Below are positions 17,155-18,455 of a stretch of DNA of 64,000 bases, one piece after another. The first letter of the stretch is position 1. The number at the start of each line of letters is the position of its first letter. Made by a program: the position numbers and the translations under genes. Source of the stretch: Labilithrix sp. (GTDB lineage Bacteria; Myxococcota_A; Polyangia; Polyangiales; Polyangiaceae); assembly GCA_046351255.1 (NCBI GenBank), contig JAXLYU010000005.1:1210583-1274582 (forward strand), written 5' to 3'. Under the pieces are notes generated by a model. That model was given only the letters and a program-made list of their open reading frames with translations. It was not told the DNA's origin and did not search any database.

Positions 17155-17625
17155 ATGTCATCCAAGCTTTTCCACACCGTCGTTGCTTTTGGAATCACCC
17201 TCGGCGCAGCGAGCGTCGGTTGCTCGGCCGAACCGGTCGACGCGCCGCAGAGCTCGGAGGCGGCGGTCGTGTCGACCAACGACTCGGAGCCGACCGACCC
17301 GAAGCTCGATACGGACAAGACCCAGCCAGCGGCGCAGAAGGATCGCTTCTGTGAGGTGGCCTGGCCGACGACGAAAGGCGGCCCGCGCCCCACGCAGGCC
17401 CAGGCGTGCATCGATCCAGACCATCTGTGCGGGGTGTACCCGGGCGGCGTCTTCAGCCAGGACACGTGCTTCGAGGTCGAGGAGACCACGAGCACGTGCA
17501 ACTCGAAGGAGGTGTGGATGTTCTGCAAGTCCACCCCGGCCGGCCACGAGTGGACCTGCCCTGTGGGCACCAAGAAGGTCGACCATTGTGTCTGGCCCGC
17601 CCCAACCTCGGACACGGAGCGGTGA
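17155..17625 (+). CDS. Cys-rich lipoprotein (module A partner; KLFHT signal)
   Basis: MSSKLFHTVVAFGITLGAASVGCSA is a signal plus lipobox; the mature part has 9 Cys. Its stop lies 5 nt before the next gene's start. Confidence 0.5.
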   Translation: MSSKLFHTVVAFGITLGAASVGCSAEPVDAPQSSEAAVVSTNDSEPTDPKLDTDKTQPAAQKDRFCEVAWPTTKGGPRPTQAQACIDPDHLCGVYPGGVFSQDTCFEVEETTSTCNSKEVWMFCKSTPAGHEWTCPVGTKKVDHCVWPAPTSDTER

Positions 17626-17630
17626 TCGAG

Positions 17631-18455
17631 ATGGTCCACGAGTACACGGAGAAGGGGCGTTGGGGCGGTCGGCTGACGAACAAGCCGCTCCCGCAGACGG
17701 ACTCCGCGATCGATGCGCTGCCGCCGGCGCTTCGTGAGCGTCTCGCGGGGCTCTGGCACATTCGATCCGCGATGGAGCGGCGCGTGGGCGACTCCTTCTC
17801 GATGGTCGTCACCGCGCTCGAGCGCCGGCGCACCGCGCCTCTACTCCTCGAGCTCGCGCGGCGCGCCGTTGACGACGAGTATCGTCACGAGGAGCTGAGC
17901 CGTCGCGTGGCGTCGGTCTATGCGGGCAGGGATCTGCCGCGCGCGCAGCGCCTCGAGCTCACGCCTCCGAAGTACGAAGGCGAGAGGGAGGAGCTCCGCG
18001 ACACGCTCACCATCGTCGGCCAGTGCGTCTTCAACGAGACGACGGCGGGCGCTTTCCTCGAGGCCTCCCTCTCCCATGCGAAGACGCCGCTCGCACGGGC
18101 CGCGATCTCGGAGCTGCTGAGCGACGAGATCGACCACGGCCGCATCGGCTGGGCGCACCTCGCCGAGCTCACGGCGGAGGAGCGGAAAGAGGTCGAGCCG
18201 TGGCTCCTGCCCCTGGCGTACCTGAACCTTCGCGAGTGGCAGCGCGAGACTCCGTACGATCCCTCGCACGACGCGATCTTCTCCGATCACGGCGAGCCGC
18301 CGACGGCCGTGCTGCACGCTGCGCTCGTCGACGCTCTCCGCACCCTCATCGTGCCGGGCCTCGCGGCCCTTGGCATGGACACGAAGCCGCTCGTAGCCTG
18401 GCTCGATGCCGGCGCCGAGACGAGCAAGCCGCCCCGCGAGCTCGCGAACGCTTGA
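17631..18455 (+). CDS. ferritin-like diiron-carboxylate family protein (module A)
   Basis: Starts MVHEYTEKGRW right after the lipoprotein stop. Ligand-like motifs AMERRV, DDEYRHEE (ExxH), FNETT and SDEIDHG (ExxH). A paralogue lies at 27124..27921. Confidence 0.55.
   Translation: MVHEYTEKGRWGGRLTNKPLPQTDSAIDALPPALRERLAGLWHIRSAMERRVGDSFSMVVTALERRRTAPLLLELARRAVDDEYRHEELSRRVASVYAGRDLPRAQRLELTPPKYEGEREELRDTLTIVGQCVFNETTAGAFLEASLSHAKTPLARAAISELLSDEIDHGRIGWAHLAELTAEERKEVEPWLLPLAYLNLREWQRETPYDPSHDAIFSDHGEPPTAVLHAALVDALRTLIVPGLAALGMDTKPLVAWLDAGAETSKPPRELANA

Follow-up and report, generated by a model that had tools for sequence, protein, structure and literature searches.

A window of 64,000 nucleotides from Labilithrix sp. 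(Polyangiaceae; assembly GCA_046351255.1, contig JAXLYU010000005.1, positions 1,210,583 to 1,274,582 of the forward strand; "the window" hereafter denotes this whole stretch) carries two small gene cassettes, A and B. Each of them joins a gene for a small lipoprotein-like precursor to a gene for a larger ferritin-like protein with a predicted diiron-carboxylate site, referred to below as the enzyme (Table 1). Comparison with related loci indicates that precursor and enzyme form a functional pair, and raises the possibility that the lipoprotein signal peptide of the precursor doubles as a leader for a modifying oxidase, in the manner of RiPPs, peptides that are made on ribosomes and modified after translation.

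An earlier note on this DNA had described two modules of the same architecture, and all four open reading frames (ORFs) are found as described there. The intergenic spacing of four to five nucleotides holds as well: five nucleotides separate the TGA stop of the precursor gene from the ATG of the enzyme gene in copy A, and four separate the TGA stop from the GTG start in copy B. The two large proteins are homologous, as had been proposed, and align with 36% identity over 253 residues (E 7e-37). The small proteins were said to have diverged past the signal peptide, and their alignment is indeed limited to the first 22 residues (11 of 22 identical, E 3e-6); in translation, precursor A is Cys-rich and precursor B is rich in S, T and G and ends with GWVCCG, again in agreement with the note. 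Its description of a duplicated module has to be narrowed. The paralogy of the two copies stands, while a recent duplication does not, as copies A and B fall into different clades, both of them old and with orthologues of their own; a second Labilithrix metagenome-assembled genome (MAG) has both, in convergent orientation and 3.5 kb apart (locus L119, 5700-6813 and 10270-11567). The KLFHT stretch, named as a signal peptide shared by the two copies, is present in both, but its range is wider than had been supposed, the leader being conserved across the whole family.

The proportion of G and C in third codon positions (GC3) lies between 0.86 and 0.91 in all four genes, read in the frames given (0.86 in precursor A, 0.91 in precursor B) and matches that of the adjoining HutD and GST genes; the GC content of the window is 68.5%. 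With a GC3 like that of their neighbours, the four ORFs are therefore real coding regions. Chance or an annotation artefact as the source of these ORFs is ruled out by GC3, by conservation and by the specificity of the leader motif. In a six-frame translation of the window KLFH occurs only twice, both times at the precursor genes. Public records list the exact proteins of the window as hypothetical proteins of a Labilithrix sp. MAG (locus tags U0270_05865, U0270_05870 and U0270_05925).

Table 1. Coordinates of the cassette genes, their predicted elements and associated features (window positions unless a locus is named)
Feature	Position	Strand	Description
Precursor A	17155..17625	+	156 amino acids; predicted pre-prolipoprotein: leader, disordered spacer, WPTTKG motif, 8-Cys C-terminal domain
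Leader of A (predicted lipoprotein signal peptide)	17155..17223	+	MSSKLFHTVVAFGITLGAASVG-C23
Leader peptide written out			MSSKLFHTVVAFGITLG (L5, F6, H7, V10 numbering)
WPTTKG motif of precursor A (W70-G75)	17362..17379	+	candidate modification site; invariant in alignment A3
Enzyme A	17631..18455	+	274 amino acids; predicted cytoplasmic ferritin-like diiron-carboxylate protein, no signal peptide
First putative metal half-site, enzyme A	17775..17888	+	E49 (helix 1), D82-E83-x-R85-H86 (helix 2)
Second putative metal half-site, enzyme A	18036..18137	+	N135-E136-T137 (helix 3), D165-E166-x-x-H169 (helix 4), then R171-x-G173-W174
Precursor B	27926..28195	-	89 amino acids; predicted pre-prolipoprotein: leader, S/T/G-rich spacer, C-terminal GWVCCG
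Leader of B (predicted lipoprotein signal peptide)	28121..28195	-	MDSRLTAKLFHTIVVLGVGLTAAG-C25
C-terminal core motif GWVCCG of precursor B	27929..27946	-	W-x-C-C-G-stop kept in L094 and L119
Enzyme B	27124..27921	-	265 amino acids; GTG start; paralogue of enzyme A
Tentative regulatory element	17107..17124		AT-rich AAATCATATCGATTCCGC, ~30-50 nucleotides upstream of precursor A
Multicopper-oxidase-like neighbour, five related loci	L022 869-3577; L055 46-2709; L056 49-2655; L049 32-790; L047 3927-6593		beside the cassette

Enzyme family and predicted metal site

Neither enzyme of the window matches any Pfam or NCBIfam family at E<=1. Among 58 relatives, matches below the family thresholds were found to AurF (8 of 58), DUF455 (5 of 58) and Rubrerythrin (3 of 58). 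Enzyme B has 123 homologues at E<=1e-10; some of these are named "ferritin-like domain-containing protein" by NCBI, a name that the copy B orthologues of other Labilithrix MAGs also carry, and a few have a precomputed match to PF11583 (AurF). A word-indexed search retrieved 463 relatives of enzyme A, and an exhaustive HMMER scan retrieved 848 clusters at 50% identity with E<=1e-3, of which 304 have E<=1e-10. Nearly all sources that carry a name are Polyangiaceae, Labilithrix, Nannocystis, Kofleriaceae or unclassified MAGs of Myxococcales, and isolated family members occur in bins of Leptospiraceae and Gammaproteobacteria. A search of the family profile against the sequences of solved structures gave chance matches only (E about 0.4).

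The AlphaFold2 model of enzyme A, built on 33 homologues (alignment A1), is all-helical, with eight helices, a predicted local distance difference test score (pLDDT) of 94.7 and a predicted template modelling score (pTM) of 0.91. Its closest folds are aldehyde-deformylating oxygenase (ADO), PaaA/PaaC, the R2 protein of ribonucleotide reductase, R2lox and AurF/CmlI, and Foldseek agrees; the alpha subunits of soluble methane and toluene monooxygenases and VlmB are further fold relatives. The four-helix-bundle core with its extra helices can be superposed on known members of the ferritin-like superfamily; the sequence identity to the diiron enzymes just named is only 11-19%. The ferritin-like diiron fold suggested by the earlier note is thereby recovered in the predicted structure, together with the E/ExxH/E/ExxH arrangement of residues.

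The strings DDEYRHEE and SDEIDHG, in which these residues had been noticed, are both present, and the residues themselves are invariant or nearly so among homologues. In alignment A2, which comprises 58 diverse representatives 25-58% identical to copy A, E49, E83, H86, H169 and G173 are invariant, and E136, D165, E166, R171 and W174 are conserved in at least 90% of sequences; all six putative ligands (E49, E83, H86, E136, E166 and H169) are invariant in the 33 sequences of A1. In the model the ligands take mid-helix positions on helix pairs 1-2 and 3-4, with spacings of 34 and 30 residues. The two E...(D)ExxH half-sites provide four carboxylates and two histidines, and the first of them has the classical form DExRH. 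A signal peptide is absent from the enzyme sequence. By its fold and ligand pattern the enzyme belongs to the ferritin-like superfamily and lies outside all of its curated families, in a family of its own that has not been described. Judging from the model, it is very probably a diiron-carboxylate oxidase or oxygenase that works in the cytoplasm and belongs structurally to the R2/ADO/PaaA class.

A ferritin-like four-helix core with ExxH motifs, and the Rubrerythrin matches of three relatives, might also be expected of an iron-storage or detoxification protein of the ferritin, Dps or rubrerythrin type, one that acts on no specific substrate and is paired with the lipoprotein through co-regulation only. 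We consider this highly improbable. Ferritins, bacterioferritins and Dps proteins have four-helix subunits of ~140-180 amino acids that build cages of 12 or 24, whereas the present enzymes, with 265-275 amino acids and eight helices, have the build of oxygenases and of the R2 class. Storage ferritins are not their closest structural relatives: ferritins and Dps score lower and align over only ~140 residues. A rubredoxin domain is missing from the enzymes, and the adjacency of enzyme and precursor in ~100 loci of unrelated context, together with the gaps of four to five nucleotides in the window, goes far beyond the needs of co-regulation.

Precursor anatomy and pairing with the enzyme

The leaders of the precursors display a positively charged n-region, a hydrophobic h-region and a lipobox Cys, and are predicted from these features to be lipoprotein signal peptides of the signal peptidase II (SPII) type. 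The N-terminal logo of 90 non-redundant precursors reads, in percent, S51 [R46/K42] L93 F93 H71 [A55/T28] [I50/V35] V93 x x G88, and the family consensus can be written as (R/K)LFH(A/T)(I/V)VxxG followed by the lipobox Cys. Lys or Arg directly precedes the motif in 88% of precursors, and small and hydrophobic residues follow it. The lipobox Cys is found 13-19 residues past the motif Leu; position -1 of the lipobox is occupied by G or A in 92% and by G, A or S in 98%, position -2 by A, T, G, L, S or V, and position -3 by L, A or S. Judged by these sequences, the conservation of the leader is far above that of an ordinary signal peptide.

The leader is followed by a spacer of ~30-150 residues, rich in D, A, G, S, T and P and hypervariable in length and composition. 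Last in the precursor stands a short motif, conserved among the members of each enzyme clade, which tracks the enzyme tree. These end motifs include GW(P/H/A)(P/T)TK-stop, PPCYWIK-stop, CFPCY(V/I)-stop, CWP(M/L)F(I/V)-stop, GWLGC-stop, W(S)(A/M)CC-stop, (I/V)VLIL-stop, PPPEIK-stop, GWATGVPCKA-stop, CCWATTCD-stop, GWAPCH and TWACC. The WPTTK-type motif forms the extreme C-terminus in the clades with short precursors (the first of the motifs above), and precursor A carries it ahead of its Cys-rich domain. Twenty-five homologues of precursor A (alignment A3) share invariant S3, L5, F6, H7, V10, G13, L16 and C23 in the leader region, C66, the motif W70-G75 and eight Cys. The AlphaFold2 model of precursor A has disorder at residues 24-76 and a small beta domain at residues 80-150 (pLDDT 73-89), and WPTTKG falls in a flexible, accessible segment of low confidence. 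Precursors of the copy B type end with LPGWVCCG (L094) or FPSWACCG (L119, the second Labilithrix MAG), and those of clades related to it with GWLGC, GWAPCH, TWACC or WS(A/M)CC.

Scans of the precursors against Pfam and NCBIfam gave nothing, the matches of precursor B being low-complexity noise only. Many precursors are rich in Cys or His, and many lack Cys in the mature part. The evolution of the precursor is much faster than that of the enzyme: one and the same database has 26 detectable homologues of precursor A against 463 of enzyme A. Such short precursors of low complexity are probably under-annotated in general. At one locus (L119, 5700-5990, plus strand) a B-type precursor (MQNRLTAKLFHTVVV...FPSWACCG) was missed by the public gene call, which has a 60-amino-acid antisense ORF in its place (5774-5956, minus strand).

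We surveyed 36 genome and 80 metagenome loci encoding relatives of the enzyme. The lipoprotein partner is found at orthologous as well as distantly related loci, as the earlier note had anticipated. An automatic filter recovered a small co-oriented upstream ORF at 86 of the 106 enzyme matches with enough upstream DNA. Inspection of 17 filter misses by eye revealed that 14 were contigs cut inside the precursor, with the C-terminus still visible, or precursors with variant leaders; the L110 precursor was recovered on a second pass, two loci (L080 and L084) belong to a clade with a fused leader, and only L083 is ambiguous. The gaps between precursor and enzyme genes mostly fall between -16 and +35 nucleotides. 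In 620 kb of DNA (the related loci and the window, in six frames) the strict motif [KR]LFH[ATVS][ILV]V occurs 62 times, in 60 cases directly upstream of an enzyme gene; the remaining two occurrences represent a second cassette and a tandem second precursor. Three outcomes had been named in the earlier note as speaking against a functional unit, namely chance similarity of the two large proteins, unconserved ExxH residues and absence of the partner from orthologous loci, and none of them is observed. Precursor and enzyme almost certainly constitute an obligate functional pair.

All-against-all clustering of the flanking ORFs of ~100 loci revealed no conserved third gene, be it a protease, a transporter, a reductase or a protein with a RiPP recognition element, and no reductase, ferredoxin or effector subunit gene associated with the cassette. 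The most widespread neighbour is a Ser/Thr kinase, present at 6 loci, and the gene surroundings vary between genomes. With no conserved third gene and differing contexts, the cassette is autonomous. Two loci have tandem precursors in front of a single enzyme (L003, 2912-3475 and ~3480-3977; L005, 3172-3636 and 3666-4001), and in each case the leader, the sequence FCDAxWPTTKG and a Cys-rich domain are present in both precursors. Such tandems in front of one enzyme are a likeness to many RiPP clusters.

In the fused clade (L080, ~947-1762; L084, ~420-1235; P0155) no separate precursor is found upstream, and the enzyme itself begins with the leader motif, M-I-P-D-A-LFHTIV-RFAEVFARSPLD. This N-terminus is charged and cannot be a signal peptide. 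Such a Rosetta-stone fusion joins leader motif and enzyme physically, and shows that the selection on LFHxxV concerns the enzyme and not secretion alone. The DNA of L080 and L084 seems less GC-rich than the window, and the host may be another taxon. Another candidate for a fusion of precursor and enzyme (P0257, 417 amino acids) was dropped, its Arg-rich junction of ~40 residues suggesting a frameshifted read-through.

The leader and its fusion to the enzyme could also be read with the signal peptide itself in the central role. LFHxxV might be modified by the enzyme and set free through LspA cleavage as a hydrophobic signal, or the enzyme might serve mainly as a dedicated holdase or gatekeeper that, bound to the signal peptide, governs partner export; the leader and lipobox Cys are after all the sole universally conserved parts of the precursor, and the fusion, too, can be taken to indicate binding of some kind. 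A parallel exists in the enterococcal sex pheromones, such as cAD1 (LFSLVLAG), which are cut from lipoprotein signal peptides. There, too, selection acts on the particular sequence of a short hydrophobic stretch within a lipoprotein signal peptide, but no modifying enzyme is known to be involved and the mature lipoproteins are ordinary folded proteins, so that the likeness is one of resemblance only. Such a role is distinctly unlikely in view of the end motifs, which are conserved within clades despite drifting spacers (CPPGSERPFPPCYWIK, W-x-CCG, and WPTTKG invariant in 25 sequences). Their retention while the spacers drift implies that the mature end is under selection too. An intact, invariant diiron site is moreover hard to justify in a pure chaperone, and the motif of the fused clade no longer lies within a secretable peptide.

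A candidate route of modification and its alternatives

We favour the explanation that the cassette is RiPP-like and that the lipoprotein signal peptide serves its cytoplasmic diiron oxidase as a leader as well. As a full model, resting on sequences and predicted structures, we give it an even chance. The enzyme gene would be translationally coupled to the precursor gene, and the oxidase would bind the LFHxxV leader of the newly made partner in the cytoplasm. Using O2 at its putative diiron site, it would then oxidise one or more residues of the short conserved motif; the targets would be WPTTK of copy A, located in the flexible stretch ahead of the Cys-rich domain, and the C-terminal WVCCG of copy B. 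Sec would export the modified precursor, and Lgt, LspA and Lnt would lipidate it and remove the leader, so that a peptide or small protein in modified form would stay tethered to the membrane through its long disordered spacer. Candidate chemistries, which are guesses, include hydroxylation or cross-linking of Trp, Tyr or Cys, and oxidation of the Lys that often stands at the terminus. What the sequences and models show is the fold with its conserved ligands, the near-obligate adjacency of the two genes, the anatomy of leader, spacer and core, the tandem precursors and the natural fusion of leader motif and enzyme; the metal content, the binding, any covalent modification and its chemistry, the lipidation and the biological role are inferred. 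Among the functions left open by the earlier note, the evidence favours an oxidase acting on the lipoprotein or on a lipid over a metal-handling pair.

Extended to the family as a whole, the proposal is that an R2/ADO-like diiron oxidase, guided by a (R/K)LFHxxVxxG signal-peptide leader, oxidatively modifies many different core motifs, and that its products are a large family of lipid-anchored modified peptides of Polyangia and related Myxococcota. We hold this broader claim more tentatively, at somewhat less than even chances.

The arrangement has close counterparts among systems based on other enzymes. In DAG-RiPPs, which are hybrids of lipid and RiPP, MNIO iron oxidases of the ChrH/DybH type modify precursors that carry SPII lipoprotein signals (PMC13056109). 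These systems likewise place a small precursor gene beside a gene for a cytoplasmic non-haem iron oxidase without a signal peptide. The precursor N-terminus is again an SPII signal, predicted in the present case, with an invariant lipobox Cys, and the conserved target motif, here a candidate, is C-terminal, embedded, or located at the end of a larger protein. Sec, Lgt and LspA suffice there, and would do so here, with no dedicated protease or exporter. The enzymes, however, are unrelated: those of DAG-RiPPs are TIM-barrel MNIO proteins (DUF692), whereas the present ones are ferritin-like four-helix-bundle proteins that share neither sequence nor fold with them and have no DUF692 match. The present signal peptide also differs in its strongly conserved motif, which one clade carries on the enzyme itself, and the core motifs are other ones with a far wider diversity.

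Bufferins offer a second comparison, as their precursors bear Sec signals and are modified by a cytoplasmic iron oxidase before export (PMC12452194). In bufferins and oxazolins an MNIO enzyme acts with a DUF2063 partner, the modified residues are Cys, and the role is periplasmic copper buffering (PMC11626156, PMC12452194). Here as there, Sec signal peptides, sometimes of the lipoprotein kind, take the place of classical leaders. The enzyme family is a different one, no DUF2063 or DoxX partner accompanies the present cassettes, and many of their precursors have no Cys in the mature part. The features by which RiPP cassettes are recognised, an adjacent and co-oriented small precursor in genome after genome and a conserved leader with a variable core, are found here as well. 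By analogy, the cassette would work like a DAG-RiPP or bufferin system, yet outside those MNIO-defined classes. New is the combination of a known biosynthetic logic with an unrelated enzyme fold and a conserved signal-peptide leader.

Several points weigh against modification of the precursor by the enzyme. No residue is common to all the core motifs (GWPTTK, CCWATTCD, PPCYWIK, CWPMFI, GIVLIL and PPPEIK), so that a single common chemistry is not obvious, and universal conservation in the precursor is confined to the leader and the lipobox Cys. The lipobox was called from the sequence, and the precursor filter demanded a Cys, though all variants inspected by hand had one. Fisher tests per alignment column for covariation between leader and enzyme gave weak associations only (p 1e-4 to 1e-7, uncorrected for multiple testing and phylogeny) and nothing robust; simple vertical inheritance would equally lead adjacent genes to diversify together. 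A RiPP recognition element is not recognisable in the enzyme. Literature searches turned up no case of a ribosomal peptide being modified by a ferritin-like (R2/BMM-type) enzyme, and we know of none. To our knowledge, the substrates of ferritin-like diiron enzymes are small molecules, acyl chains, tRNA or residues of the enzymes themselves, and none acts on a separately encoded ribosomal peptide.

Part of this evidence would suit a pair that cooperates without covalent modification, the enzyme oxidising a small molecule or lipid in the cytoplasm and the lipoprotein serving the same pathway as a periplasmic or surface receptor, carrier or metal binder, for example in copper or iron handling. 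The closest folds (ADO, PaaA, AurF/CmlI and VlmB) all act on small molecules or acyl chains, core motifs without a common residue would be no surprise, and many of the precursors are Cys- or His-rich. A multicopper-oxidase-like CBM_5_12 protein stands beside the cassette at 5 loci of the ...CGWPPTK clade, and regulators of the ArsR type are found near it in a few loci. We nevertheless regard such cooperation as unlikely. It leaves unexplained why the signal peptide should be the most conserved segment of the partner across enzymes only 25-35% identical, and why LFHTIV should be fused to a cytoplasmic enzyme in one clade. Many partners consist of a leader, a low-complexity spacer and 5-7 terminal residues and are too small for a folded receptor, and the clustering of flanking ORFs found no small-molecule pathway genes conserved nearby.

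Should oxidative modification guided by the signal peptide prove true, the ferritin-like diiron superfamily would join the makers of ribosomal natural products; the iron enzymes known to us in that role so far are MNIO, HDO and HD-domain enzymes only. It would provide the first known case of a ferritin-like enzyme whose substrate is a ribosomal peptide encoded by a separate gene, and a second, independent invention of the lipoprotein-pathway RiPP idea, first described in 2026. A signal peptide serving as leader would be a new way for a cytoplasmic enzyme to catch a secreted substrate before its export. The family comprises at least 848 clusters, is absent from Pfam and NCBIfam and is annotated as hypothetical, with precursors that gene callers often miss, and a defined signature for it would improve annotation and genome mining. 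The size of two genes makes the cassette readily testable by heterologous co-expression.

Surroundings of the cassettes

The genes next to the cassettes of the window look unrelated to them. On the side of copy A (13716-17085) they encode a pyridine-nucleotide-disulphide oxidoreductase, an HDOD/HD protein, a metallophosphoesterase and HutD, and on the side of copy B (25512-27100) a LysR regulator and GST. A putative ORF of 391 amino acids (18406-19581, plus strand) overlaps the end of enzyme A, and another of 350 amino acids (28324-29376, minus strand) lies upstream of copy B on the same strand; neither has a Pfam match. Cassettes from different clades tend to form convergent pairs a few kb apart, as seen in the window, in L119 and in L115. 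The genes between the paired cassettes are partly syntenic, and in Labilithrix they include DUF420 and a pyridoxal phosphate-dependent decarboxylase.

The multicopper-oxidase-like neighbour (Table 1) belongs to the ...CGWPPTK clade, whose precursors are rich in Cys and His. It is a secreted protein of ~900 amino acids with a multicopper-oxidase domain and CBM_5_12 modules, and it adjoins the cassette on the same strand. Its presence hints at a link to copper or to extracellular oxidation in this clade.

Scans for sigma-70 promoters at both cassettes found nothing, and no Rfam families are present in the window. Only two terminator-like matches are found, and both fall within enzyme B on the opposite strand. 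Upstream of the A-type cassette a sequence of the form A(A/G)ATCATAT(C/T)GATTCCGC is conserved in three genomes (the window, L001 and L040). This AT-rich element could be an operator or a promoter element; as a Fur box it is a poor fit by eye. Cassettes of the B type share a different sequence, ACTGATA(C/G), located 10-18 nucleotides before the start codon.

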